Shown: positions 23,463 through 36,431, numbered from the stretch's first letter. The stretch: DNA of 64,000 bases from Minisyncoccota bacterium (GCA_965267345.1 OZ253947.1:202814-266813), one strand, 5' to 3'. A program made the numbers and translations. Notes: a model not told the origin generated them from the sequence alone.

Positions 23463-23780
23463 ATGAACACGTATACATACATGCTCGGCATCGTGCTCGG
23501 TGTCGTTGTTCCCTTTATCGGTATTTTTATTGGTCTGCAGGTATCGACCGTACTCGGTACCATTCTGGCGTTTCCTGTCATCGGCGTTGCCTACATAACG
23601 GGAATTCCGTTTGGCGCGTGGGGTTGGAGTCTGATGATTACCGCGGTGGTGGTCTCAATCGTCGTGTGGACGGCCATTGTTGCCGCAGTGCAATACGCAT
23701 ACGCGCACGTTGCTCGTAATGAGGACAGCACCACAGTACCTACGGAGGATCAGCGGGAGCAGACTGCGGTACACGAGTAA
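23463..23780 (+). CDS. Hypothetical membrane protein (3 TM)
   Basis: 105 aa, hydrophobic. Preferred over an overlapping Arg/Cys-rich frame. Confidence 0.45.
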   Translation: MNTYTYMLGIVLGVVVPFIGIFIGLQVSTVLGTILAFPVIGVAYITGIPFGAWGWSLMITAVVVSIVVWTAIVAAVQYAYAHVARNEDSTTVPTEDQREQTAVHE

Positions 23781-23795
23781 TCCACCACACACAAA

Positions 23796-23833
23796 TGCAA
23801 ATAATTTGCAAATAAAAATTTGCAGGTTATAAT
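23796..23833 (+). promoter_or_regulatory. Promoter with overlapping 7-1-7 palindromic operator TGCAAAT-A-ATTTGCA (Fur-family/Zur-like box)
   Basis: Palindrome at 23796-23810. Its right arm supplies the -35 TTGCAA, then a 16-nt spacer, then a perfect -10 TATAAT at 23828-23833. A third half-site ATTTGCA lies in the spacer. RBS AGGAGAGG precedes the ATG at 23888. Confidence 0.5.
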
Positions 23834-23887
23834 CACGTGTGCAGGCATCACGCTTGCATTCCACACCAGAAATGAGGAGAGGTTGCC

Positions 23888-24145
23888 ATGAGTGCACCCT
23901 GCGGCGGTTGTCCGCCGTGCTGTAATCAATGTCCGTTCTCGGGCAAGGCGGAGGCTCATTCCGGCGGCGCTGTGACGGAGGTCGTTTCATCGAAGGCGTA
24001 CGGATGCGCCAAAGGTGCGCGTTCCGTCGTCATCGATGAGTACGGAACGCTTGGCCTCATGAGCAGTGACGGGTTTCATCCCATCACTGCTGAGGGGTCT
24101 GACTTCCTTCAGAGCACCGGAAATTCGCTTGCTGCTTTCTGCTGA
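23888..24145 (+). CDS. Cys-rich small protein (85 aa), unknown function
   Basis: MSAPCGGCPPCCNQCPFSGK... has 7 Cys in the first 17 residues plus a C-terminal AAFC. It is a stand-alone unit with a strong promoter, an operator and a terminator. Confidence 0.6.
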   Translation: MSAPCGGCPPCCNQCPFSGKAEAHSGGAVTEVVSSKAYGCAKGARSVVIDEYGTLGLMSSDGFHPITAEGSDFLQSTGNSLAAFC

Positions 24146-24169
24146 TCGCAGCGTACGCACATTCTGGTT

Positions 24170-24199
24170 GTCGCCGGACCTCTTGCGAGGTCCGGCGAC
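24170..24199. terminator. Terminator hairpin after Cys-rich gene
   Basis: GTCGCCGGACCTC-TTGC-GAGGTCCGGCGAC followed by TTTACTACTT. Confidence 0.55.
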
Positions 24200-24232
24200 T
24201 TTACTACTTATTCACGCATAATTTGTACATCC

Positions 24233-24577
24233 ATGTTTATTGAGTACCTTATTCTAGTGTCGTTTATAACGACTACTGCCCTTATATGGCGAACTGCGTT
24301 ACTCGACCACCCGCGATTACTCGCGTTTATTGAAAGCATTCCGATTATCGGAGGAGCATTACGATGCGGGTTTTGTTCCGTTTTATGGCTTACTCTTTTA
24401 GGTGTATTGGTGCATAATCCATTTGCAGTATATCTTGTTGAGGTACCGGCCATTATTGAAATTTGGATAGGATGGTTTGTTGTGGGTGCAGGAGTGCTCC
24501 TTTTCCGCAATACTCTTGCAGTCTTGCTGGAGGGCGCAGGAGTCTTAACGCACTTGCATCGGTCACACGAGAAGTAG
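24233..24577 (+). CDS. Small membrane protein with CGFC motif (possibly DUF1360-like)
   Basis: 114 aa, 3-4 TM, LRCGFCSVLW. Confidence 0.5.
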   Translation: MFIEYLILVSFITTTALIWRTALLDHPRLLAFIESIPIIGGALRCGFCSVLWLTLLGVLVHNPFAVYLVEVPAIIEIWIGWFVVGAGVLLFRNTLAVLLEGAGVLTHLHRSHEK

Positions 24578-24643
24578 CCGATGCCTTCCACGTCAGGTTA
24601 TCTACATATGTACCATGACTCGGCAGTGGGAGTTCCAAAAATA

Positions 24644-24835
24644 TCAACGGTAAACTCGGTCCATACAAAAGAAACAACAATGGCAATACCAAGCCCAATC
24701 AGTAGTTGGCGCTATGGCGAAGCCTGTGCTGCTATAAGAAATGCGTACGAAAATAAGGAGAATTGCTGCTGCGACAAAATACAATACAGTCAACCACATC
24801 GCATCGGTAAATTGCATTACAACAAGCGGAATCAA
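24644..24835 (-). CDS. Possible small membrane protein with CHCCFFC motif
   Basis: TTG-start ORF of 63 aa. Weak evidence. Lies between DUF3179 and the CGFC gene. Confidence 0.2.
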   Translation of the reverse strand: MIPLVVMQFTDAMWLTVLYFVAAAILLIFVRISYSSTGFAIAPTTDWAWYCHCCFFCMDRVYR

Positions 24836-24917
24836 TAGCGCAAGTGCCGTGACGGCAACAACGTGGAATACGTTAGAACCTTCGTAAGCGATTTATAGCG
24901 AGTTTCTAACGGGACTA

Positions 24918-25922
24918 TTATTCGATATTCCAAACAACTCCATCATCTTGATGGTGTATTGCCCATGAAAACCACATTTCGTAGTACCCAGGGATAGGTT
25001 CACCATCGGCAGTGACCTCTATACCATCTTCAACTCTTTCTGCTTTGAGTAATACACCATTTGCATCTAACTCTGCCACATCACTCAGTTCATCATCAGC
25101 AAACGCGTAGGAGTTACCCCCAAATGGCACGACATACATTATTTTTTTTGCTGGGTAGCGCTTGTCAGAAACCGAAACGGGGAAATATAGCTCATCAGTG
25201 AGGCCATACCCTGAATACGGCTCGATATCATATGATCGGCTGAAACCAGTATCTCTGCTCAAAACACGAGCATCTGGGTGGAGCTCTTTGAGTTTTTCGA
25301 ACTCAAGGAGTTTCATGTCGATAAGGGAAAGTTTTGTTCCGGTGTATTCACCAACTACGGCCTCGTTTTTTGCCTGTGACCAAAGCGACTCCGTTTTCGT
25401 ATCGTACATGAGCAAATTGGATTCCCACAGGAGACCGCTTACGCCAAACCTAAGCACATCGCCGTTCACCTGGCGATCAAAAACGATGGCGCTGCCACAC
25501 AGTGGGCAAAAAGTAACGGCAAAATGCGTATCATTGATAGAGTCGTTCACTATCTCATGCCAGACAAGAATATTATACGGGTAGTATCGCTTTTCGCCCC
25601 CAATAGTAACGAGCACACCCAATACATCGTCACCGACGTCGACGGATTCGACAGACTCAAATTTCGGCGCGTTGATCGCGGGGATGCCATCTTTACCTGG
25701 TCCGCCTGATAGGATCTCATCCAGCGCGATACTCTTTTTTGCGGTATTTGTCTCAAGACCGAACGAAGACAGTGCTGCTTTGGCATCCTTTTGATCAGTG
25801 TGCGCAAGTGTTGGCGTCGTGTTGACACCCGTATAGCTAGTATATAGCGCCCATACGGCGGCAATCACTAACGCCAGGATTCCCACTCCGCCCCATGCGC
25901 GTTTGGAAATTTTAAGAAACAT
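24918..25922 (-). CDS. DUF3179-family protein, membrane-anchored
   Basis: YYPYNILVWHEIVND, VTFCPLCGSAIVF and ESNLLMYD. Start MFLKISKRAW. Preceded by -10 TATACT, 6 nt, ATG. Confidence 0.75.
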   Translation of the reverse strand: MFLKISKRAWGGVGILALVIAAVWALYTSYTGVNTTPTLAHTDQKDAKAALSSFGLETNTAKKSIALDEILSGGPGKDGIPAINAPKFESVESVDVGDDVLGVLVTIGGEKRYYPYNILVWHEIVNDSINDTHFAVTFCPLCGSAIVFDRQVNGDVLRFGVSGLLWESNLLMYDTKTESLWSQAKNEAVVGEYTGTKLSLIDMKLLEFEKLKELHPDARVLSRDTGFSRSYDIEPYSGYGLTDELYFPVSVSDKRYPAKKIMYVVPFGGNSYAFADDELSDVAELDANGVLLKAERVEDGIEVTADGEPIPGYYEMWFSWAIHHQDDGVVWNIE

Positions 25923-25969
25923 GTGTCGAGTATAGCACATGCGGCATATGTGTGCGTATCATACACAAC

Positions 25970-26734
25970 CTACTGGCATTCTGGGTCTTGGTCCAGAGCG
26001 TTTGTGGTGTTCCGCCAGCTTTCTGCCGTATTCCCATGTGCCGGAATACCGTTGGCGCTTTTCAGTAGTGCCGCCATGTGCATCAGGTTCCATGCCATAA
26101 ATGTTGCGTGCTTGTTGGTGAATTCATTGTCGTAGCCAATGGGTGTTTCGCTATCGTCAATCGGCATGCCGCCCCACATGGTATCACCGTAACTTGGACC
26201 AGGTCCCACTTCACCGAGCCACGCAGCGTCTGCTTGCGGCGGTATCGTATATCCGATGTGCGAGAGTGCATACAAAATGTCCATAGCGCAGTGCTTTGCA
26301 CCGTCTTCGTTCCCGGTCACAACACACCCACCTACTTTCCCATAGTAGATGTATTGACCTTTTGCATTCTGGTCGCCGCTATAGGCGTACATTCGCTCAA
26401 TGACGTGTGTCGCAACACTCGACTTTACACCGAGCCAAATAGGTGTGCCAATGACAAGAATATCGGCTCTGTCGATTTTTTGCTGTATCACTGGCCAGTC
26501 ATCTTTTTGCTGCGGGTCTTCTACATCTCCATCTTTAATCATACCGAATGCAATCGTGTGATCGAGGGCATATAGTTGTTCAACAAAAATGCCCTCCTGA
26601 CGCATGATACCCGCTACACGATTCAAAAGGCGCTGGGTATGTGATTTGGCAGCATCTTTTTTTATGGAACAATTGATAAAAAGAGCCGTGAGTTCAGAGT
26701 ACTTTTGTGCAGCTGAGGTTTTTTTGAGTTCCAT
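25970..26734 (-). CDS. Flavodoxin-like fold NAD(P)H-dependent FMN reductase
   Basis: MELKK...LTALFINCSIKKD...ADILVIGTPIWLG pattern. Start at the internal ATG 26734. Confidence 0.75.
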   Translation of the reverse strand: MELKKTSAAQKYSELTALFINCSIKKDAAKSHTQRLLNRVAGIMRQEGIFVEQLYALDHTIAFGMIKDGDVEDPQQKDDWPVIQQKIDRADILVIGTPIWLGVKSSVATHVIERMYAYSGDQNAKGQYIYYGKVGGCVVTGNEDGAKHCAMDILYALSHIGYTIPPQADAAWLGEVGPGPSYGDTMWGGMPIDDSETPIGYDNEFTNKHATFMAWNLMHMAALLKSANGIPAHGNTAESWRNTTNALDQDPECQ

Positions 26735-26912
26735 AGTGTTATTTTTATGTTTTCCAGTACGAAAGCACATACTAACATCAAGACTAACTGTCGCAATTAT
26801 TGCCAGCACCAAACTACTGGTTATATGTGGAAAGAGAATAAGAATATATGTTTTCGCGTAAAAATTTGTTACACTGAGCGGGTAGTATTGTTAAGTAAGG
26901 TTCAAAACTACT

Positions 26913-27158
26913 ATGGAACATACAAACAAAGAGCAGAGTATCAGAGAATATGAGGCTAAAATTCAAGAATTGGAATCCAAAGCAAATGCTCTGGGTGATT
27001 CTGCTAAAGCAGAGATTGAGGAGTTAAAGTCAGAAGCGCAAAATGTAATAGGCAAGTGGCAGGATGCTGCTGAGGAAGAATGGGAGGATATGCGAACGGA
27101 AGCAGATGCAGCCGTAACTGCTCTGCAGAATAAAGTGTCGGAATATACCAGAAACTAG
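26913..27158 (+). CDS. Small coiled-coil protein, hypothetical
   Basis: 81 aa, E/K/A-rich heptad pattern. A weak hairpin terminator follows at about 27200-27230. Confidence 0.45.
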   Translation: MEHTNKEQSIREYEAKIQELESKANALGDSAKAEIEELKSEAQNVIGKWQDAAEEEWEDMRTEADAAVTALQNKVSEYTRN

Positions 27159-27383
27159 GGAGAACTCTGATAGGGCTCCTTCAAAAGTAACAACACCCGC
27201 AGGCGAGGGTGTTTTTACTTTTTCGTGAATTAAAAAATGCAAGTTGTACCACTGGCGCGCTCCTCCTGTTGTATGCATTCAGAACTGGTAGTTGGAGAAA
27301 AGTACAGGAGGATCTTATGAGAGTCTCTTTCGTGTAGCAGAAGGACATCTTTACAAATGTATGGATACATATACAATACGTAA

Positions 27384-27398
27384 TGCAAACAATTTGCA
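27384..27398 (+). promoter_or_regulatory. Second copy of 7-1-7 palindrome (TGCAAAC-A-ATTTGCA) upstream of znuA: putative Zur box
   Basis: One mismatch to a perfect palindrome. It overlaps a candidate -35 (TTTGCA), with 17 nt to TATAAC at 27416-27421, about 115 nt upstream of the znuA ATG. Confidence 0.45.
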
Positions 27399-27511
27399 TT
27401 TATGCACAAAGCATTTATAACGATCGGAAGTTGTTTGGTGCGTTTGGTTTGCTCGCGAAAAGGTGTGTAAAATTCTAATTATTTAATAGGCACATAGATA
27501 AAAATTGACGT

Positions 27512-28507
27512 ATGCAAAAAATTATTATTGGAGTAGTGGCTTTAGCACTGGTTGTTGGAGGAGGCCTCCTCCTGGCTAATGGTAATGGAACTGAACGACC
27601 ACTAGAAAACAAAGTAGGCGCCACTATTTTTCCGGTCTACGACATAGCGCGACAAATTGCAGGGGAGGAGTTTGAGGTAGTGCTGTTATTGCCTGCCGGA
27701 GCCTCACCGCATACCTTTGATCCGCAACCAAGTGTGGTGCGGGGTCTTGAAGGTGCGCGAGCAGTGTTTGCTATTGGCCATGGTTTGGACCAATGGTCTA
27801 AAAATTTGACAGATTCTCTTGATATTCCTCGTGTTGTTGTTGACGGTCATATTGAACTTAGGGAATCGCATCATGAGGAACACGGAGACGGACACAATGA
27901 CCACGGACATAACGATGATACACATGAGGACGGGCACCATGACCACACAGATGAGCATGAGGAGCATGAAGAAGGTGACCATGGACACGAGCACGGACCA
28001 ATTGATCCACACTACTGGCTTTCTCTTGAGAATGGGGCTCATATTGCAGAGAACATTGCCGAAGAACTCGGGAGGTTGGATAGTGAGAACAAAGCACTAT
28101 ATCAAGCACGCGCAGAAGCTTACGGCGCTGAGCTTGACTCGTTGCGCGATGAGTTGCGAGACGACCTTTCACCACTTGGCAATCGAAACATCATCTCACT
28201 TCACGATGCGTGGTTTTATTTTGCAGACGCGTTTAACTTGAGCATTGTTGGAACGTTTGCGCCGTCTGCGGGAAAGGAACCCACACCCCAGTACCTAGAG
28301 CGGTTACAAGAGGAAGTTCTTGAACAAGGGGTTCAGGTTATCTTCATCGAACCTCAGTTATCAACAGACTCTATTCGAGCTTTCGCAAATGATAACGCGC
28401 TTGACATCGCAGTACTTGATCCTCTTGGAGGAGTTGAGGGGCGACAAAGTTATATCGATCTGATGCGCTATAACGTAGAGCAAGTGGTATCAGCCCTCAA
28501 AGAGTAG
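27512..28507 (+). CDS. znuA: Zinc ABC transporter substrate-binding protein with His-rich loop
   Basis: TroA/ZnuA fold motifs ATIFPVYDIA, GASPHTFDP and DPHYW, plus a His/Asp/Glu-rich insert (HHEEHGDGHNDHGHNDDTHEDGHHDH...). N-terminal membrane anchor. Confidence 0.9.
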   Translation: MQKIIIGVVALALVVGGGLLLANGNGTERPLENKVGATIFPVYDIARQIAGEEFEVVLLLPAGASPHTFDPQPSVVRGLEGARAVFAIGHGLDQWSKNLTDSLDIPRVVVDGHIELRESHHEEHGDGHNDHGHNDDTHEDGHHDHTDEHEEHEEGDHGHEHGPIDPHYWLSLENGAHIAENIAEELGRLDSENKALYQARAEAYGAELDSLRDELRDDLSPLGNRNIISLHDAWFYFADAFNLSIVGTFAPSAGKEPTPQYLERLQEEVLEQGVQVIFIEPQLSTDSIRAFANDNALDIAVLDPLGGVEGRQSYIDLMRYNVEQVVSALKE

Positions 28508-28508
28508 A

Positions 28509-29222
28509 ATGAGTGAGACCATTATACAGCTTGATGATGTCTCCTTTGGCTATAGTAAGCGCGGTTTTATCGTAGAAGGGATTTCATTTGAGATCCCAGA
28601 GGGCTCGACGACCATGCTTATTGGTCCAAATGGTTCTGGAAAAACAACAGTGCTTAGGTTGATGGTTGGCTTGCTAAAGCCCGAAAAGGGAGTGGTGCAG
28701 GTTTTAGGGGGCACACCAAAAGCACAGCGTGCACAAATCGGGTATGTGCCGCAACGTCTTGATTTCGACAGAACATTCCCATTTACTGTTTTAGAATTTT
28801 TGCGATACTCTCATCGCGAAACTCACGCCGAAGAAATACTTGCCCTGCTGGAGAAACTCGGCGTACGCAAGCTTTCAGATGCTTTGATTGGGAATTTGTC
28901 GGGAGGTGAATTGCAGCGGGTGCTCATAGCCCGCGCGCTGTTGTCAGATCCGAAAGTCCTGTACCTCGATGAACCAATCAGTGGGATTGATGTTGGCGGC
29001 GAAAGAAATTTCTATGACCTGATCGCTGAAATTAAGCGCGAACGCAATATTACGATCGTAATGGTTTCGCATGAGCTACATGTGGTGAGCAAAATAGCAA
29101 CTCAGGTTATCTGTATCAATCGGAAAATGTGCTGCAGCGGTGAGCCAAGTACGGTACTCGTTCCAGAAGTACTGGAGGAAATGTATGGTAGAGAAGTGTC
29201 GGTGTACCACCACAACGTATGA
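28509..29222 (+). CDS. znuC: Zinc ABC transporter ATP-binding protein
   Basis: GPNGSGKTT, LSGGELQRV and LYLDEP. Confidence 0.9.
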   Translation: MSETIIQLDDVSFGYSKRGFIVEGISFEIPEGSTTMLIGPNGSGKTTVLRLMVGLLKPEKGVVQVLGGTPKAQRAQIGYVPQRLDFDRTFPFTVLEFLRYSHRETHAEEILALLEKLGVRKLSDALIGNLSGGELQRVLIARALLSDPKVLYLDEPISGIDVGGERNFYDLIAEIKRERNITIVMVSHELHVVSKIATQVICINRKMCCSGEPSTVLVPEVLEEMYGREVSVYHHNV

Positions 29223-30034
29223 TTGATATTTTCCAGTTAGAATTTATGCAACGAGCGTTTATTGCAGGACTGGCGCTTGCACCACTGCTGTCTGTGCTTG
29301 GTGCCTTTGCGACGCTGCGAAAGATGTCCTTTTTTTCTGAAGGAGTAGCGCATGCCTCCTTGCTCGGGGTAGCGTTAGCAATCATAGCCGGTGTAGTGCC
29401 TTTTTATGGTGCACTTGTGATCGGACTAGTTCTCGGGGTAGTGATATTCATCCTAGAGCGTTATACAAAAATAGCCTCAGATGCAACTATCGGTATTATT
29501 TTTACGACCGGAATGGCGCTTGGAATCTTACTCATTTCGCTAGAGCCAGGATATCAGCCCGACCTCATTAGTTTTCTGTTCGGGAACATTCTTGCTGTGA
29601 GCTGGGGTGATGTATGGACGATAGTTGTGTTGTCGTCCGTAATACTTTTCTCTGTCTATCTGTTCTATAAACAGTTAGCATTATTGGCATTTTCTGAGGA
29701 AATTGCGTGGACGTCTGGATCAAACACCACGTCTTTGAATCTGCTTTTCTACGCCCTGCTTTCATTAGCAACAGTGCTTGGGGTGAAGCTACTGGGGATC
29801 ATCCTTGTGAGTGCCCTTTTAATTGCTCCAGCTGTTTCCTCAAGAGTTCTCACGACTTCTTTTAATTCGTATGTATTTCTCTCGGTACTATTTTCAGTTG
29901 TTTCCTTTGTCGTTGGACTTCTTTCTTCCTACTATCTCGACATACCGTCAGGGGCTTCAATTGTTCTTACTGCGACGCTCCTTTTCGGCTTAGTTCTTTT
30001 GATTAAGCCGTTCACACAACGATTGCCACACTGA
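29219..30034 (+). CDS. znuB: Zinc ABC transporter permease (ABC-3 family)
   Basis: 8-TM ABC-3 permease that overlaps znuC by 4 nt. Confidence 0.9.
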   Translation: MIDIFQLEFMQRAFIAGLALAPLLSVLGAFATLRKMSFFSEGVAHASLLGVALAIIAGVVPFYGALVIGLVLGVVIFILERYTKIASDATIGIIFTTGMALGILLISLEPGYQPDLISFLFGNILAVSWGDVWTIVVLSSVILFSVYLFYKQLALLAFSEEIAWTSGSNTTSLNLLFYALLSLATVLGVKLLGIILVSALLIAPAVSSRVLTTSFNSYVFLSVLFSVVSFVVGLLSSYYLDIPSGASIVLTATLLFGLVLLIKPFTQRLPH

Positions 30035-30168
30035 TCAAAAAAGTACTTAAATTAAAATGAGACTGGAACTGGACTGGCTCGCGTGGAAGGACGCTTTTCG
30101 AACATACAGATGGCAGGACGTTTTTTCAGAACCTCAAAATACCATTGAGCAGATAAGCGACTTAGTTG

Positions 30169-30552
30169 CTATTGCTCAATAACGGCCTTTAGTTTTTCTA
30201 GCACCTCTTGAGTGAACGGATTTTCTAATTCTCCTTGGTCTACCCACTCAAAATACTCCATCTCAGTTTTATTATCGTTGAGCGATTTGTAGGTATATCG
30301 CACATTGTAGTTTTTATCAGATTTCTGAAGAGTGAAGATTTTGTCTTTTTCGTATTCAGTTACGTAGTAAGTATCCCAAACTCCACTTTCGTCACAGTTC
30401 CTGTATTCCGTCCCTATTTTTGTGGGGCTAGTATCTCGCTGTTCTTCAATCAGTCCATCAATCCAAAGAGGTGTGTTGTTAGGGTTGGTGGTGAATTCAA
30501 AAACTTCGGAAATTGGCCTATCTATTTTTGTTGAAACTTTGTTTTCTTTCAT
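30169..30552 (-). CDS. SRPBCC (Bet v1/polyketide-cyclase-like) protein
   Basis: 127 aa. MKENKVSTKIDRPISEVFEFTTNPNNTPLWIDG... is a typical SRPBCC N-terminus. Confidence 0.6.
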   Translation of the reverse strand: MKENKVSTKIDRPISEVFEFTTNPNNTPLWIDGLIEEQRDTSPTKIGTEYRNCDESGVWDTYYVTEYEKDKIFTLQKSDKNYNVRYTYKSLNDNKTEMEYFEWVDQGELENPFTQEVLEKLKAVIEQ

Positions 30553-31055
30553 ACATTTTTCTGATCAGCAAATCTGCCTTTTTCATGTTTTATCTCGGGA
30601 GCAAGAGGGTTTTTATTTCTTTCTTGCATTGATTGAGGAACTTGATCATAAGGGACGAGATGTACCCCTAAAGAAACAAGAGATTGTCTAATGTTCTCAA
30701 TCTTTTCTTCTTTTAGTGTAGGAACTTCAGAATAAGAGACGAGTTCGCCCTCTAACTTTTCAGGGCTTTCTTCGAAATATGAGCCATCTAGTTCATAAAG
30801 AAATCCTGCGTTGTTGAGTAAAGCTAGCTTGCCCTCCTGAAGTTTATCTACATACATTTCACCATTGTCAGAAAAAGAGACAGCTAGTTCGTCACCTGTT
30901 CCGTAGATCATGGCGATTGCGTATCTTTTGTCAGCAGTAGCAAAAACTACCCCTCTCCCATCTACTGCCTTGTGTGGAGTTGGTTTGAAGGTTTGAATGT
31001 TGCCAACCCTTGATCCATGATATACGTTCATACTATGAATTTTATCAAAACCCAT
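30549..31055 (-). CDS. Hypothetical protein (168 aa), island cargo
   Basis: No homology recognised (MNVYHGSRVGNIQTFKP...GRGVVFATADKRYAIAMIYG). Overlaps the SRPBCC gene by 4 nt. Confidence 0.5.
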   Translation of the reverse strand: MGFDKIHSMNVYHGSRVGNIQTFKPTPHKAVDGRGVVFATADKRYAIAMIYGTGDELAVSFSDNGEMYVDKLQEGKLALLNNAGFLYELDGSYFEESPEKLEGELVSYSEVPTLKEEKIENIRQSLVSLGVHLVPYDQVPQSMQERNKNPLAPEIKHEKGRFADQKNV

Positions 31056-31169
31056 AACTCAAAGCACGTTTTCTCAAAAGTCGCAGTAATCCTTTGTTGC
31101 TATAATGTATACAGCGCACAGGTAGTAGTCGCGCTTTGTGACGCTCGTTAGAAGTAATTGATATTGCGT

Positions 31170-31385
31170 ATGGCACACATAAAAGGAAATCGTGATGGTA
31201 AGGGCGGTAGAAACGAAACCTACCAAATTGGTTCACGAAAAAAAGTTGCTCGTAAGACAGCCGTAAAAGAGGTCAAACAAGGAAAGCACCCTGACGCACA
31301 TGTCTACAAGAGAGGAAGACAGGAATATGTTCGAGACAATCCTGACTACTCGAAGAAGGACAATGTAAACAGGAAAAAGAGGTAA
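31170..31385 (+). CDS. Small basic protein, hypothetical
   Basis: 71 aa, K/R/G-rich, contains a KGG motif. Weak evidence. Confidence 0.3.
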   Translation: MAHIKGNRDGKGGRNETYQIGSRKKVARKTAVKEVKQGKHPDAHVYKRGRQEYVRDNPDYSKKDNVNRKKR

Positions 31386-31495
31386 ATGGAAAAGTTACTG
31401 GCTTAGATAGAGCTTGCTTGAAAAGAGATAAGATTGAGTTGCGGTCATTTTGAAACAGCGATCGAAAAGTAACACCTCCCAAAGAAAAGTCCCAT

Positions 31496-31684
31496 CTATT
31501 GTTGGGACTTTTCTTTTTTCTTAGCTCTTTTTCGATCAATCCACGAAGCCCCTAAAAAGAGGGTTAGGATCAACAATGGCGGAAAAAGTATCCCAATGAC
31601 CAAACTGCCCCAAAAGTTCTTTTTCAACTCTTTATCAGACATTCTCCTTGGCTTGAACCAAGAAGTTTTTTCTTCTTTATTCAT
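31496..31684 (-). CDS. Small membrane protein, hypothetical
   Basis: Start MNKEEKTSWFKPRR. One TM (GSLVIGILFPPLLILTLFLGASW) and a K-rich tail. Confidence 0.35.
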   Translation of the reverse strand: MNKEEKTSWFKPRRMSDKELKKNFWGSLVIGILFPPLLILTLFLGASWIDRKRAKKKEKSQQ

Positions 31685-31918
31685 ATTGTTCGCGTAGGTT
31701 TTACTTGTAATGATTGTGAGCAGGCAACAGAAAAGGCCACACAACTCACACCGATAGCTCCTTTCAGAACTACCCGACACCCTTTCGGGTGAAGACCTAC
31801 GCGAATAAGTGGCGGTTTATGTGGCCGTCTCTATTCGCGTAGGATTTATGTCACCATGCCTTCAGAAATCTGAAGGGTTAGGTTTGTAAATACATTATAT
31901 CAAATCTCGCCCCCACCT

Positions 31919-33010
31919 CTAGCTCGTAGAATTCTGCTCCTGCCTTACAAAAAACTGTACGGCATGTGGGTTATGCAGATGAACTAAGTATGTTTTTACT
32001 GACCTCTTCTTTCCTCGTACAAAAATTTTTCCAGAAAATCTGTATTGCTTCTTTGTAATAAGATCTTCGTGTTCAGCATGTACAGCCCTACATACCTTGT
32101 TCATAAAACTCCAATTTTTGATTTTGGCACTACCAATTACGTAGATGTTCTCACATGCTTCATGTATTGACCCTCTAATTCTTGAGGCATGAAGTTCAAC
32201 ATCGTTACGATCTCGAGTAGCTTTTGAAGCAACAATTTTTATCGTACATCGTGTATATTTTCCCCTGAATGTCTCTTCTACTGATGTGTCTCCAACTTCT
32301 CTCTGAGAAAAGTTTTCGAGAAATTTGATCAGGTCATTCACTTCTACTATGATCTCTTGGTTTGGCTTTTCAAGAAAAACCTTAGAACCTAATGTTGAAA
32401 GCTCCTGTACTAAAATTGGGAAAAACACACCCAATTCTTGTATTTTTTCAAATTGCTTGATGAGTAATCTCAGATCGTCATCTTGGGTAAGGTTAGGAAC
32501 AATATAGTCGTTCATAAATTGTTCGAGCGCTGAAGGGTATTCGTCTTTCAGGATTTGTTGTGTTGCGTAAAGATCCAAAGATTTCTTTTGTTTCTTTGAA
32601 AGATGTCTCTTCGATCTGTTTAGTAAAGTTTCAGAGGTGAAAATATAGGTAGCATGTACGAAATTCTTTGTTTTATGTTTTCTGTCACGCATAACGACTA
32701 TGACTTCATCCTCATCCCACACCAAACCCTCGTCTTCCTCATTTCCAATCCAGTGTACTTTTACTCTTGGGAAAGATGTAGTAGTGTTTGTCTCGACAGA
32801 TCTAACAAATGAATTTACCCGACCTTCAATGTCATTCTTTATTGCAAGGTATTCTGCTTTCTTCCAAAATAAACTGACAAATTCCCAGAACATTGCTAAC
32901 CACTTTTTTACTTTGTCAGGATTTTTGAAAATGACATAGACAACAATAAGGGTCAGTACTACCCCCGCGGAAAAACTAGATAAAAGTTGTACAATACCTT
33001 GTTCAATCAT
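31919..33010 (-). CDS. Membrane-anchored 363-aa protein of unknown function (island cargo)
   Basis: N-terminal TM (IVQLLSSFSAGVVLTLIVVYVIF), then a ~330-aa cytoplasmic K/E-rich domain. Translationally coupled (ATGA overlap) to the upstream zinc-ribbon gene. Confidence 0.6.
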   Translation of the reverse strand: MIEQGIVQLLSSFSAGVVLTLIVVYVIFKNPDKVKKWLAMFWEFVSLFWKKAEYLAIKNDIEGRVNSFVRSVETNTTTSFPRVKVHWIGNEEDEGLVWDEDEVIVVMRDRKHKTKNFVHATYIFTSETLLNRSKRHLSKKQKKSLDLYATQQILKDEYPSALEQFMNDYIVPNLTQDDDLRLLIKQFEKIQELGVFFPILVQELSTLGSKVFLEKPNQEIIVEVNDLIKFLENFSQREVGDTSVEETFRGKYTRCTIKIVASKATRDRNDVELHASRIRGSIHEACENIYVIGSAKIKNWSFMNKVCRAVHAEHEDLITKKQYRFSGKIFVRGKKRSVKTYLVHLHNPHAVQFFVRQEQNSTS

Positions 33011-33270
33011 AGCTTTTTCTTTCTTTCATCAAGGTATTCTGTTAGTGAAGTGATACACTCGGGATCATCACAAATCATATTTATTGCCCCAGATTGAGGC
33101 AAAATTGAGTACAAATTTTCATTCGTTATTTGTTTGCCACAGAACTTACAATTTTTCTTGCCAGAGTCAAAATCCTCTTTTGCCCCCATTTTGCCAAGAA
33201 GTGTATCTAGGTCTCTTTCGTGTACAGTGTTCAATTTTCTTTTATCGGTTTCGTCCATAAAGTTTTCCAC
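33007..33270 (-). CDS. Small zinc-ribbon protein (87 aa), first gene of two-gene operon
   Basis: CKFCGKQ, 22 aa, ICDDPEC. Acidic N-terminus. Confidence 0.55.
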   Translation of the reverse strand: MENFMDETDKRKLNTVHERDLDTLLGKMGAKEDFDSGKKNCKFCGKQITNENLYSILPQSGAINMICDDPECITSLTEYLDERKKKL

Positions 33271-33597
33271 ACCTTTCTGTTTACAAATGTGTGTTGATAC
33301 AATCCATTATACCCCTAAAACAAAGGATTTCATACTGCTAGCAGGATACTTGTCTCACTCTATTTAGCTTTATTGTAACGTTGTTTATCTGTTATAATAG
33401 ATACACAATCGAATATGGTTTAGTTTTTGAGGGCTTTATGCCATTCCGCTGACCTATCAAATAAATCAGCGAGCAAACTTTTTTGAATTCCGAAAATTGA
33501 ACACTCAACTATCTTTGGATTTTTGGTGTTTAGCTTTCGGGATTTTCTTATTGAAGCAATCGTCCAGGTCCAAGATCTTGGTCGATTGTTTTGTTTT

Positions 33598-33783
33598 ATG
33601 GCAAGCACAGAACTTACAAAAGAGTTTCAGCAAGTCCTCTACAAAGAAATTGGGTTGGAACTTGATGATAAAGAAGCAAGCAAGATACTTTCTAATCTTG
33701 TGAGCTACTTTGATTTGCTTGCTCTATTGCACCACAGAGATCAAGTCAACGTCTCTGAAAACTCATACTCAAGAGGTAATTAG
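33598..33783 (+). CDS. Small hypothetical protein
   Basis: 61 aa from MASTELTKEF. A 17-24-nt stretch of its coding sequence is repeated just past its stop, in a direct repeat at 33629-33653 and 33782-33805. Confidence 0.3.
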   Translation: MASTELTKEFQQVLYKEIGLELDDKEASKILSNLVSYFDLLALLHHRDQVNVSENSYSRGN

Positions 33784-33997
33784 CAAGTCCTCTACAAAAA
33801 ACTGGCTAAACACCACATTGGTGTGCATATGACAGTTCCCTGCACTGAGTGACAACTTCTCAACAGGGAGACCTCATATGCACATCAATCACTGGAACTT
33901 GGTTGAAGTTTCTGGCGCGAGGGATGAAAAAGTCGAGAAACGACAAAAGAGTTATGAGAAATACATTACAAGCTAAATCCTATGAGGGATAAAGAAG

Positions 33998-34240
33998 TTG
34001 TTCATTATGAAAAAGTATACAAAAGAAGAAAAGTTGGCTCGCAAACAACTGAGGGTCAATGCAAATAAATATAAGGATAATTTACCCAGAGAAACCGTCT
34101 TGGTGCGAATAGATAAAAATTGGCACAAGGCACTCAAGATCTATGCTGTTGAGCAAGAGATGACAATGTCTCGGATCATAGATAGTTTCTGTGAACATTA
34201 TCTGGGTACTGAGAGGTACAAAGAAGTATGCAAAAAGTAA
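33998..34240 (+). CDS. Ribbon-helix-helix (CopG/Arc-like) DNA-binding protein
   Basis: TVLVRIDKNWHKALKIYAVEQEMTMSRIIDSF fits the beta-strand then helix RHH pattern. Confidence 0.5.
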   Translation: MFIMKKYTKEEKLARKQLRVNANKYKDNLPRETVLVRIDKNWHKALKIYAVEQEMTMSRIIDSFCEHYLGTERYKEVCKK

Positions 34241-34674
34241 CTCCAAACAACACCAATAAAAAGGTTGTATCTAAGCTACGCCATGAAGACGAATTTGCTT
34301 CGTTTGTTGTTTGGGTTGCAACACCAAAAGAGCTTCGAGACCCAAAAACACAGGCAGAGTTAGCTCAGAAGTTTGGAGTTGGGCAAGACACGCTTTCTGA
34401 CTGGAAGAAAAGAGATGGGTTCTATGAAAAGGTCGCGAAAGTGAGAAAGTCGTGGGGTCGAGACAGAACTCCTGATGTCATTCATGCACTTTACAGGAAC
34501 ATTATGAAAACAGGGTCAGTGCAAGGTGTAAAGCTATGGCTTCAGTATTTTGAAGATTGGATGGAGAAAACAAACAGCTATGACCCCGCGAATGATCCGA
34601 TACGGCAGTTGTCGGATAAGGAGCTGATGGCTGAGATACGCAAAGCACAAAACTTCTTTCGTAAGAAGGACTGA
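34228..34674 (+). CDS. HTH DNA-binding protein (possible recombination directionality factor or regulator)
   Basis: TQAELAQKFGVGQDTLSDWKKRDGF is a helix-turn-helix. It overlaps the RHH gene and sits immediately upstream of the recombinase. Confidence 0.55.
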   Translation: MQKVTPNNTNKKVVSKLRHEDEFASFVVWVATPKELRDPKTQAELAQKFGVGQDTLSDWKKRDGFYEKVAKVRKSWGRDRTPDVIHALYRNIMKTGSVQGVKLWLQYFEDWMEKTNSYDPANDPIRQLSDKELMAEIRKAQNFFRKKD

Positions 34675-34707
34675 TAAATTATCAATAAATAAACTATAAT
34701 TATATTT

Positions 34708-36285
34708 ATGAAGGCCGTAGTTTATGCACGAGTATCCTCAAAACCCCAACAAGACACAGGGTATTCTTTGCCTGCACAAAGAAAACTGGCAAACGAATAT
34801 GCAGACAGGAAGAGTATCGATATCGCAAAGATTTTTTCTATCGCTGAAAGCGCTAGTGGAAAACGGGAACGACAGGTTTTTGCAGAGATGATTGAGTACA
34901 TGAAAAAACATGACATCAACAATCTTTTATGTGAAAAGGTTGACCGATTGACACGAAACCTAAAAGAGGCCGTTACAATAAATGAATGGCTTGAGCAAGA
35001 CAAAAGACGTCAAGTACATTTTGTAAAACAGAACCTAGTTATCCATCAAAATTCAAAGTCGGATGAGAAATTTCGCTGGGATATTGAAATTGTTTTGGCA
35101 AAGAAATTCATTGCCAACCTGTCAGAGGAAGTGAAGAAAGGTCAGCGTGCAAAAATTGAAGCAGGTTGGCTACCAACAAAGCCACCTTTGGGATATAAGA
35201 CCATTGGAGAAAAGGGGCACAAAATTCATGTTGTAGATGAAGATGTCGCACCTTTTATCAAAAAGATGTTTGAACTGTACGATACAGGAAACTACTCAAC
35301 TCGAGAACTAGGTAGAAAAATGTTTGAGCTAGGATTACGAAATAGGAACAGTCGTGAAGTTGGAAAAAGTAGGATTTACGATCTTCTATCTGATCCTTTC
35401 TATTATGGAGATATGAGGTGGAATGGCGAAATCTACAGAGGTAAGCAAGAACCACTGATATCAAAGGAGTTGTTTCAGTCAGTACAAAGTAAGTTGAACA
35501 GAAAAATGAGTAGCCCTTACTTCAGCAAGCACAATCCTGTGTATAAGGGAAAGATCAATTGTGGTGAGTGTGGACGAAGAGTTAGTTGGGAAAAACAGAA
35601 AGGTACTTGGTATGGAGGGTGTAAAAACTGCAAAGCGCAGTTAGGAAGCAAAAAATATATTAGGCAAGATGAGGTAGACAAAGAGATAATGCAAAAGATC
35701 CTAGAGATTGCACCCAAGAATGACAAAATACTTTCGATACTTGAACGCGCATTGAAGGAAGATCATCAAAAGGAAATTGATCTCCATAAAGCTCAAAAAA
35801 CGGAGCTAGAAAGGTCTTTGAACCAAATAGATAGAAAGATGGCTCTAATGTACGATGATCGGCTCTCAGAGCGAATTACCCCTGAAGTGTATGACACCAA
35901 CTTCAAGATACTCAAAGATCAAGAGCGTGACCTTTTGCGACAACAAAAACGTCTTCAGGAAGACAAAAGTGCTTATTATGAAGCAGGTTATTCAATACAC
36001 CTCCTTGCGTCTAAGGCAAAAGATATTTATGCAAGCAAAAAAGTCACCACCGAAGAGAGGAGATTGCTTTTGAATTACGTATTTTCGAACTTGTCCATAA
36101 AGCAAGGAAAACTAACACCAGAATACACAGAAGCATTCAAATTCATGCAGGAATGGACACCACGCCTAAATGCGAGTTTCGAACTTCAAAAAAGTGTTGT
36201 GAACAAAGGGCTAAATATCACTTTTAGCATACCTCGTCCTGTCTTGCTCCGCGGGCAGGATTCGAACCTACGACCTACCGGTTAA
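34708..36285 (+). CDS. Large serine recombinase (resolvase/invertase N-domain + recombinase domain + zinc ribbon + coiled coil)
   Basis: AVVYARVSSKPQQ holds the catalytic Ser. DRLTRN, a recombinase domain, a CGECGRR...CKNC zinc ribbon and a C-terminal coiled coil. The last ~13 codons read through the tRNA-Asn sequence. Confidence 0.9.
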   Translation: MKAVVYARVSSKPQQDTGYSLPAQRKLANEYADRKSIDIAKIFSIAESASGKRERQVFAEMIEYMKKHDINNLLCEKVDRLTRNLKEAVTINEWLEQDKRRQVHFVKQNLVIHQNSKSDEKFRWDIEIVLAKKFIANLSEEVKKGQRAKIEAGWLPTKPPLGYKTIGEKGHKIHVVDEDVAPFIKKMFELYDTGNYSTRELGRKMFELGLRNRNSREVGKSRIYDLLSDPFYYGDMRWNGEIYRGKQEPLISKELFQSVQSKLNRKMSSPYFSKHNPVYKGKINCGECGRRVSWEKQKGTWYGGCKNCKAQLGSKKYIRQDEVDKEIMQKILEIAPKNDKILSILERALKEDHQKEIDLHKAQKTELERSLNQIDRKMALMYDDRLSERITPEVYDTNFKILKDQERDLLRQQKRLQEDKSAYYEAGYSIHLLASKAKDIYASKKVTTEERRLLLNYVFSNLSIKQGKLTPEYTEAFKFMQEWTPRLNASFELQKSVVNKGLNITFSIPRPVLLRGQDSNLRPTG

Positions 36286-36318
36286 CAGCCGGTTGCTCTA
36301 CCGCTGAGCTACCGCGGA
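36247..36318 (-). tRNA. tRNA-Asn (anticodon GTT)
   Basis: The reverse complement reads TCCGCGGTAGCTCAGCGGTAGAGCAACCGGCTGTTAACCGGTAGGTCGTAGGTTCGAATCCTGCCCGCGGAG. It forms a cloverleaf with a 7-bp acceptor stem, T-loop GGTTCGAATCC and anticodon loop CTGTTAA. CCA is not encoded. Confidence 0.85.
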
Positions 36319-36431
36319 ATGTGTTTCGCGCGGTATGCTCAGCGAGCTGAGCCCTGCCTGCCGGCAGGTACCGCGGAATACTGTTCAAAACGAACTGTCG
36401 TATTGTACACAACGGGGGTGCATTTTCAACG

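Follow-up and report, generated by a model that had tools for sequence, protein, structure and literature searches.

Comparison with related loci makes it very probable that nucleotides 30077-36249 of a 64,000-nucleotide stretch of Minisyncoccota DNA (GCA_965267345.1 OZ253947.1:202814-266813; this whole stretch is referred to as the window, and positions are counted from its first letter) form an integrative element which its own large serine recombinase (LSR) placed at the 3' terminus of a tRNA-Asn(GTT) gene, with the attachment site of the element, attP, lying within the open reading frame (ORF) of the integrase. The block is a real integrated element and its limits are now defined: the tetranucleotide GCTC is found at 30077-30080 and again at 36246-36249, which yields an element of 6,169 bp, and it is all that the two ends have in common. 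An earlier note, made from the window alone, had pointed to an AT-rich island of about 6.2 kb ending at tRNA-Asn, and had placed it at 30035-36318. The island is there, and the placement was approximately right. Its GC content (0.389 in 30077-36245) is below that of all 456 other 6.2-kb segments, the lowest of which has 0.463. The abrupt change of composition that the note described at both ends is sharp on the tRNA side only (0.548 to the right of the tRNA); on the znuB side, with 0.457 in the adjoining znuABC block, the step is modest.

By every sequence and fold test, the protein encoded beside the tRNA is a large serine recombinase, for which catalysis of recombination between attP and the host site, attB, can be predicted. 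It matches Pfam Resolvase (1.9e-20, residues 3-153) and Recombinase (3.1e-14), and the PHROG integrase family phrog_95 (2e-71); the match to Zn_ribbon_recom is weak, at 24.5 bits against a cut-off of 25.3. Residues R8, V9, S10 and S11 of the YARVSS motif are invariant in 25 homologues, as are C285, C288 and C305 in the homologue alignment. Residues 339-442 of the AlphaFold model (pLDDT 82) include long helices, as would fit a coiled coil. Foldseek aligns the model best with solved serine integrases, namely SPbeta, Bxb1, phiC31 and LI (E 4e-18 to 6e-11); the matches to SPbeta, Bxb1 and phiC31 are full-length (E 4e-18 to 1.5e-12), and sequence identity to solved serine integrases is 11-19%. Pfam, PHROG and AlphaFold/Foldseek thus agree with the YARVSS motif, zinc ribbon (just below cut-off) and coiled coil that had been read from the sequence before. 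The element's one recombinase belongs to the serine type, neither Pfam nor PHROG detecting a tyrosine recombinase.

The integrase ORF has no stop ahead of the tRNA. As noted earlier, its last codons enter the tRNA gene's 3' half, and it overlaps with the gene by 40 nt (36246-36285), and its TAA stop falls in the anticodon loop. The 525-aa form of the protein is made up of 514 element-coded residues and 11 read from the tRNA antisense strand. When 34708-36249 is joined to 30081 onward, an in-frame protein of 547 aa is obtained, which ends in ..SIPRPVLL-AWKDAFRTYRWQDVFSEPQNTIEQISDLVAIAQ and matches uninterrupted homologues. At the other end of the element, a small ORF located just after znuB (30057-30182) is homologous both to fragments that, in many loci, are located 6-10 kb upstream of the integrase and to the C-terminal tail of uninterrupted integrases; the left-end tail matches the C-termini of uninterrupted homologues with tblastn E values of 5e-8 to 8e-7. 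The ORF enters the tRNA only because attP lies inside it.

The same layout is found in a large set of relatives. More than 1,700 homologues of the integrase were obtained at E < 1e-10, and 79 genome loci were retrieved; a pattern scan of species-representative genomes gave at least 531 relatives, mostly in candidate-phyla-radiation (Patescibacteria) assemblies. Three kinds of C-terminus are seen in the best 120 homologues: a stop after a conserved ..HPxLLRG; QDSNLRP.., which is the tRNA T arm read in antisense (GAT TCG AAC being read as DSN); and a conserved tail of the form W-D-x-F-R-T-x-x-W.... In at least 55 of the 79 loci, the integrase gene and a tRNA gene on the opposite strand meet at their 3' ends, the tRNA being an intact tRNA-Asn (27 loci), a tRNA-Asn bearing a group I intron (15) or another tRNA (13; Gln, Arg, Asp, Leu or Ser). 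In 13 loci other than the window, the integrase gene is split in the same manner, the tail fragment being on the same strand and separated from tRNA-Asn by 6.7-10.7 kb.

Relatives are also found as free circles. A 7,798-bp contig with a terminal overlap of 127 bp and no tRNA (L080) encodes an uninterrupted 546-aa integrase, the ORF of which contains ..CATCCTACTTG-GCTC-GCTTGGCAGGACAGCTTTCGAAC.., and a contig from a different sample (L081) is identical to it across attP. A circle of 12,769 bp (L104), again without a tRNA, has an integrase gene that is contiguous across the joint; the circle is 99.6% identical to a contig bearing a Prim-Pol gene. Because the free circles carry an uninterrupted integrase, attP is placed inside the integrase gene, and integration detaches the last 33 residues.

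Several observations were made on the target tRNAs themselves. The members located at tRNA-Arg, Gln, Ser, Asp or Leu (L008, L022, L023, L029, L036, L040, L041, L044, L061, L064, L068, L078 and L079) have the same antisense overlap, and in the tRNA-Asp member (L040) about 19 nt are common to the far junction and the tRNA end, a core longer than at tRNA-Asn. In about 15 loci, a group I intron of roughly 150-600 nt is inserted in the anticodon loop of the target tRNA-Asn(GTT), and ARAGORN misses these genes (L058 11579-11888 (-), Rfam Intron_gpI 85.9 bits; also L004, L013, L015, L020, L039, L046, L057, L059, L065, L069 and L071). A crossover in the anticodon loop, suggested by about 15 relatives in which tRNA-like sequence breaks off there, was rejected because these are the intron-bearing tRNA-Asn genes. 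Two 52-aa proteins clustered with the integrase proved unrelated to it. Among IMG/VR viral contigs, there are three close relatives only; for two of these, the contig edge coincides with a tRNA 3' end.

The attachment sites could be mapped in 14 elements. The P' arm has the consensus GCTC-GCYTGG-RGGAC-N3-TTTCGAAC, which is kept across loci and in the free circular forms. The B arm is unconserved, save for a TG beside the core. Identity between the two junctions covers 4-6 nt, and GCTC is common to all 14 loci. With the C of GCTC counted as +1, 12 of the 14 loci, the window included, have the heptamer TTCGAAC starting at +13 in the tRNA arm (B' arm, T-loop antisense, at 36261-36267 in the window) and at +18 in the P' arm. 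In the LI integrase, the zinc-ribbon motif spans base pairs 16-24 in attP and 11-19 in attB (PMC3783163), and the phiC31 structures display the same 5-bp shift of the zinc-ribbon register (10.1101/2025.05.02.651858). Since the +13/+18 offset matches this shift, TTCGAAC is what would be expected as a signature of the att sites and is a candidate binding motif for the integrase, which, by analogy with known serine integrases, would read it with its zinc ribbon. The two heptamers that the earlier note had seen scattered near 30100 are thus real (TTCGAAC at 30097-30103 and GGCAGGA near 30110), but the first is no stray: it belongs to the att site.

Strand exchange probably takes place within GCTC, at the TC or the CT dinucleotide, GC being unlikely as the crossover pair because it is palindromic; a 2-bp staggered cut followed by subunit rotation would be expected from known serine integrases. 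The predicted attB consists of the last ~25 nt of the tRNA (B' arm) and the tRNA trailer (B arm), and reads ..GGAACTGGACTG-GCTC-CGCGGGCAGG..; the predicted junction k-mers are CCTCGTCCTGTCTTGCTCGCGTGGAAGGACGC for attP and GGAACTGGACTGGCTCCGCGGGCAGGATTC for attB. The junctions compared between loci and the free circles of relatives are consistent with attP x attB recombination. A further symmetry between the P and P' arms was considered and discarded, TTTCG in the P arm being a hairpin loop and not a mirrored motif.

With a crossover at tRNA nucleotides 71-74, the tRNA body is wholly host DNA, and a tRNA-derived repeat is therefore not expected. The best other match to the tRNA 3' half (45 nt) in the 64-kb window has 25 of 45 positions identical, and blastn-short found no repeat. 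The earlier note had taken the overlap with the tRNA as the hallmark of integration, had found no clean repeat of the tRNA 3' end at the far side and had suggested looking there for a degenerate copy. Integration at tRNA-Asn by the LSR stands, and so does the lack of a tRNA repeat, but a search of the whole window found no degenerate copy of the tRNA 3' half, so that an element carrying a replacement tRNA half was rejected, and the far att site does exist, in the form of the 4-bp core and its P' arm (30077-30120).

In relatives, the ~15 integrase codons immediately ahead of the core read, on the tRNA strand, as a stem-loop with a T run behind it, beginning a few nucleotides past the tRNA end. 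Over 28 loci, the hairpin z-scores average -3.85 and are below -2 in 23, and the stems differ in sequence between loci with pairing retained (covariation). Because this stem-loop and T run sit just after the tRNA, the element seems to bring the tRNA a new terminator; the B arms displaced by the P arm often hold hairpins too. Two details of the tRNA gene may be added. The pre-insertion tRNA-Asn, rebuilt by joining 30058-30080 to 36250 onward, ends in ..GCGGAG-CCA, and the inserted one in ..GAG-CAA; the encoded CCA of the rebuilt attB is probably due to chance, since the tRNA-Glu and tRNA-Leu genes of the window have no encoded CCA. On the host side, ~85 nt upstream of the 5' end of tRNA-Asn, there is a promoter-like sequence (TTGAAA, 16 nt, TACAAT; 36402-36429 (-)), which the insertion leaves unaffected.

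The limits given above might be those of the latest arrival only: a tentative possibility is that earlier elements of the family at the same tRNA left the znuABC block (27259-30076) behind as their remains, and perhaps 23500-27258 as well, which would make the island larger and composite. A second, degenerate P'-arm-like site is present at 27259-27336 (+), reading GCTC, 16 nt, TCAGAAC, 7 nt, TGG; it may be a junction left by an earlier element, in which case znuABC would be former cargo. The pattern just given occurs in the window at 27259 and 30077 only, against 0.02 occurrences expected by chance, although it was partly shaped after the site at 27259 had been seen. The frame at 27259 (LLLLYAFRTGSWRKVQEDL..) resembles a second type of tail found in P0013, P0046 and L005 (E 0.005); GC content is 0.457 in 27257-30076 and 0.474 in 23500-27256, compared with 0.523 in 1-23500 and 0.548 to the right of the tRNA; and several relatives (L058, L005, L007) possess arrays of tail relics. 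However, the window contains no second integrase relic, and znuABC is ordinary host equipment in related bacteria. A composite island would in any case add to the explanation preferred here, an element inserted through an attP within its integrase ORF, and would not replace it. The 6.5 kb to the left of the element (23500-30076) hold genes for a DUF3179 protein, an FMN reductase, a small coiled-coil protein and ZnuABC, with a histidine-rich ZnuA. In the relatives, three tail relics precede the integrase in L058 (713-817, 1412-1510 and 2306-2353) and two each in L005 (2653-2736) and L007 (696-782); these arrays have the look of repeated insertion at one tRNA followed by decay of the elements.

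The pattern of substitution in the severed tails shows purifying selection at the protein level. Among integrated loci, 19 tail fragments are open for 32-39 codons (32-35 in all but one) and end at a similar position, and the chance of 33 stop-free codons at this composition is 0.13 for each. In codons 13-33, which lie beyond the att arm, synonymous sites are saturated (pS 0.74-0.90); pN is 0.22-0.24 in two tighter groups (pN/pS 0.27-0.30), and pN/pS is 0.64 in the most divergent group. In codons 1-12, which constitute the P' arm, pS is 0.21 in the closest group versus 0.74 further on, pointing to constraint at the DNA level. In the AlphaFold model, a disordered linker (494-511) leads into three helices (512-546). 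These data bear on whether the tail is a protein segment at all, as the ORF might simply read through attP to a chance stop, FRT and W being conserved for the sake of the DNA only. FRT is indeed the translation of TTTCGAAC, the first 9-12 tail codons are the P' arm with its depressed synonymous change, and one subgroup has short, dissimilar tails such as LLRTWDDVRTEI... Yet codons 13-33 are outside any plausible 50-bp att site, and there the tails keep their length, a hydrophobic pattern ending in ..LL.L.. and a pN/pS of ~0.3 in the two tighter groups at saturated synonymous sites, besides the modelled helices. We therefore consider mere read-through unlikely.

The mechanism that we propose for the element would start with the pairing of attP, located inside the integrase ORF 34 codons ahead of its natural stop, with attB at the tRNA end. 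Insertion would leave the tRNA body intact and replace the trailer alone, the P arm supplying a hairpin that is terminator-like in most relatives. It would also cut the integrase gene and leave its last 33 codons stranded 6.1 kb away at the left junction, until excision to a circle restored the 547-aa protein. The tail is detached in every integrated copy, and selection on such a peptide implies regular passage of the elements through the free state; this passage implies in turn that excision can be carried out by the truncated enzyme or by a partner. Since the severed tails stay open and under purifying selection, the elements probably still cycle, and the 525-aa form would still support excision.

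The same evidence speaks on the possibility that the block is a fixed, dead remnant, its integrase inactivated by truncation in the "suicidal" manner of SSV-type elements and its left tail decaying. SSV-type integrases are destroyed by their own integration (PMC7253208), and the element contains no replication or transfer gene recognisable by Pfam or PHROG; its excised form was not found either. But the catalytic and DNA-binding domains of the window LSR are all in one piece, with only 33 residues lost; no damage is seen in the ORF, at the two junctions or in the tail; relatives have free circles; and severed tails that keep their length and purifying selection across the family would not be expected if integration were terminal. 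A dead remnant appears improbable in the light of these results.

Some observations weigh against the proposed mechanism or its application to the window copy. The exact host tRNA-Asn sequence has no match in the metagenome collection that could serve as an empty site, the nearest relatives of znuB (67-70% identity) are flanked by other genes, and the excised circle of the window element is absent from the sequence collections searched. The mobility of the window copy has thus to be judged from its intactness and from its relatives, because neither an empty site nor a circle of its own was retrieved, and this copy may no longer be mobile. The B arm has no recognisable half-site, which is unusual for the attB of a serine integrase. 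Dyad symmetry in attP is best when centred on T|C, but the signal is weak (0.339 against ~0.25) and narrows the crossover pair only to TC or CT. The hairpin of the window is weak as well (-12.5 kcal/mol, z -2.4), no clear T run goes with it, and the model of the tail is of moderate confidence (pLDDT 58-80). Lastly, the function of the tail is itself a prediction.

As to that function, the selection acting on the tail suggests that it serves the free state, with integration competence, directionality and protein turnover as possible roles; a regulatory or directional role is quite possible, if somewhat short of probable. A bolder proposal, which we regard as doubtful, makes the 33-residue tail an internal sensor of the element's state by which directionality is set: the full-length enzyme, made only from the circle, would integrate, and the tail-less enzyme, made only from the integrated copy, would be competent or licensed to excise. 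In the same proposal, the family would be the first large clade of serine integrases specialised for tRNA genes, recognising essentially a single half-site (tRNA acceptor and T arm).

The remaining genes of the element, along with the features described above, are listed in Table 1. The ribbon-helix-helix (RHH) and helix-turn-helix (HTH) genes reported earlier as neighbours of the recombinase are present, and together with a small conserved ORF (33523-33783) they make up a module that recurs in relatives. Homologues of the small ORF lie mostly 0.2-1 kb upstream of the integrase gene and belong to no Pfam or PHROG family; those of the RHH protein adjoin the integrase in 8 loci. The HTH protein could be a regulator, an excision factor or the packaging protein of a satellite-like element. 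For the cargo, no family was assigned by PADLOC, PHROGs or Pfam above its cut-offs. The cassette encoding the 87-aa and 363-aa proteins is paired again in L098 (3907-5254), without an integrase and in an unrelated context (61% and 69% identity); its 77 homologues, all unnamed and devoid of known domains, are found in candidate-phyla bacteria and small archaea, and it may be a mobile defence or addiction module. Cargo in siblings includes an AlwI-type restriction enzyme with two adenine methylases, Dcm, a type IIG enzyme, Mrr, an OLD-family ATPase, a GHKL ATPase, a subtilase and a protein kinase, and some free relatives encode Prim-Pol. The only PHROG matches in the element are the Arc-like repressor, the small-terminase-like HTH protein and the integrase, with no capsid, portal or replication gene. 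That the element is a phage satellite or defective prophage packaged by a helper phage, with the HTH protein as small terminase subunit, is very improbable: its size is like that of other small tRNA-borne elements such as tycheposons (10.1101/2020.12.28.424599) and PHROG small-terminase profiles match 34228-34674 (3.5e-7), but this match is limited to the generic helix-turn-helix region, no phage genes such as capsid or portal are present, and the siblings carry restriction-modification, defence-like or Prim-Pol replicase genes and not virion genes.

Table 1. Features of the element and its junctions, in window coordinates.
Feature	Position	Strand	Remarks
B arm	30037-30076	+	Former host DNA just 3' of tRNA-Asn; between znuB stop (30034) and core
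Left core GCTC, crossover region of junction B-P'	30077-30080	+	Sole identity between both junctions
Severed integrase 3' end	30078-30182	+	34 codons (LAWKDAFRTYRWQDVFSEPQNTIEQISDLVAIAQ) and stop
P' arm	30081-30120	+	TTCGAAC at 30097-30103; conserved consensus
SRPBCC-like (127 aa) and DUF6886-like (168 aa) proteins, cargo	30169-31055	-	Weak Pfam matches below curated cut-offs; none with PADLOC/PHROG
DUF3892-like small ORF, cargo	31158-31385	+	Pfam
Small membrane-like ORF, cargo	31496-31780	-	ORF call
Two-gene cassette, 4-Cys 87-aa and 363-aa proteins, cargo	31919-33270	-	No Pfam, PADLOC or PHROG family
Small conserved ORF, candidate regulator or directionality factor	33523-33783	+	tblastn matches in at least 25 related loci
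Ribbon-helix-helix (Arc-like) protein	33998-34240	+	PHROG Arc-like repressor 7.5e-6; weak Pfam RHH_10
Helix-turn-helix protein	34228-34674	+	Pfam HTH_Tnp_1_2 2.7e-8; PHROG small terminase subunit 3.5e-7
LSR, integrated-state form, 525 aa	34708-36285	+	Element DNA up to 36249; last 11 codons and stop are tRNA antisense
P-arm hairpin, candidate replacement terminator	36201-36239	-	6 nt after tRNA end on tRNA strand
Right core GCTC, junction P-B'	36246-36249	+	Antisense of tRNA nucleotides 71-74
tRNA-Asn(GTT), integration target	36246-36318	-	ARAGORN; 3' quarter is B' arm

The window element leads to a large and overlooked family of tRNA-targeting serine integrases, with at least 531 loci in species-representative genomes. 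In this family, integration would remodel the integrase gene so as to give two natural forms of the enzyme (547 and 525 aa in the window), providing a compact handle on the control of directionality in serine integrases. Should the tail be a state sensor, it would be the topology of the element's own gene, and not solely a separate directionality factor, that encodes direction. Because siblings carry restriction-modification and defence-like genes, the family also offers a way into the mobile defence cargo of very small genomes, for which the 87-aa and 363-aa cassette of the window is a candidate. An integrase reading a conserved tRNA arm on one side of its site and accepting any sequence on the other could be useful in practice for genome insertion.

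In domain order, fold and short att sites with a minimal core, the window LSR is like phiC31, Bxb1, SPbeta SprA, Listeria A118/LI and TP901-1. As in known large serine integrases, its candidate binding motif is 5 bp closer to the centre in attB than in attP (PMC3783163) and its gene lies at the end of the element. Unlike them, the window family targets tRNA genes, has an unconstrained B arm, and has attP in the integrase ORF, resulting in state-specific C-termini. Two surveys state that serine integrases are not known to target tRNA genes (PMC4383910, PMC7192596), and in the literature searched, which cannot prove absence, we found no description of tRNA targeting or of attP within the ORF for these enzymes. 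A minority of tycheposons use large serine recombinases, whose mode of integration is not stated (10.1101/2020.12.28.424599).

The window LSR has attP inside its ORF and lacks the tyrosine fold, so that its resemblance to the integrases of SSV-type elements and of Mx8 is one of layout only. The target of Mx8 is a tRNA gene, and we know of no family-wide survey of Mx8-type integrases. Mx8 differs from the window family in that its enzyme is a tyrosine recombinase and the element a full-size phage. For this tyrosine integrase, IntP/IntX, attP has been placed inside the integrase ORF (work of 1996 cited in PMC4383910). SSV-type integrases likewise have an ORF that spans attP and is split upon integration into tRNA targets (PMC7253208, PMC8371274), but they are tyrosine recombinases split into two non-functional halves, whereas the window LSR keeps its recognisable domains together. 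The integration-dependent immunity of BPs and Brujita is similar in that attP is located in a coding sequence and the free and integrated forms of the protein differ by a C-terminal segment, whose removal acts as the switch (PMC3694055, PMC4557955). There, however, the split gene is the repressor, the piece removed is a degradation tag and the integrase is of the tyrosine type, while in the window the split gene is the integrase itself.

Lyras and Rood are reported to have shown in 2000 that the circular form of Tn4451/Tn4453 creates the tnpX promoter, which ties expression to topology. In that LSR system, state dependence is located at the promoter or 5' end, the protein is unchanged and the target is not a tRNA. 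The window element is also like Islander-type islands, being small, AT-rich and located at a tRNA 3' end with the integrase beside the tRNA, and having siblings with defence-like cargo; unlike them, it carries or displaces no tRNA fragment. Because the 4-bp core at the tRNA end leaves no fragment repeat, islands of this family escape detection methods based on tRNA fragments. An attP within the integrase ORF combined with tRNA targeting is known for tyrosine integrases and, as judged from the literature searched, appears to be new for serine integrases.

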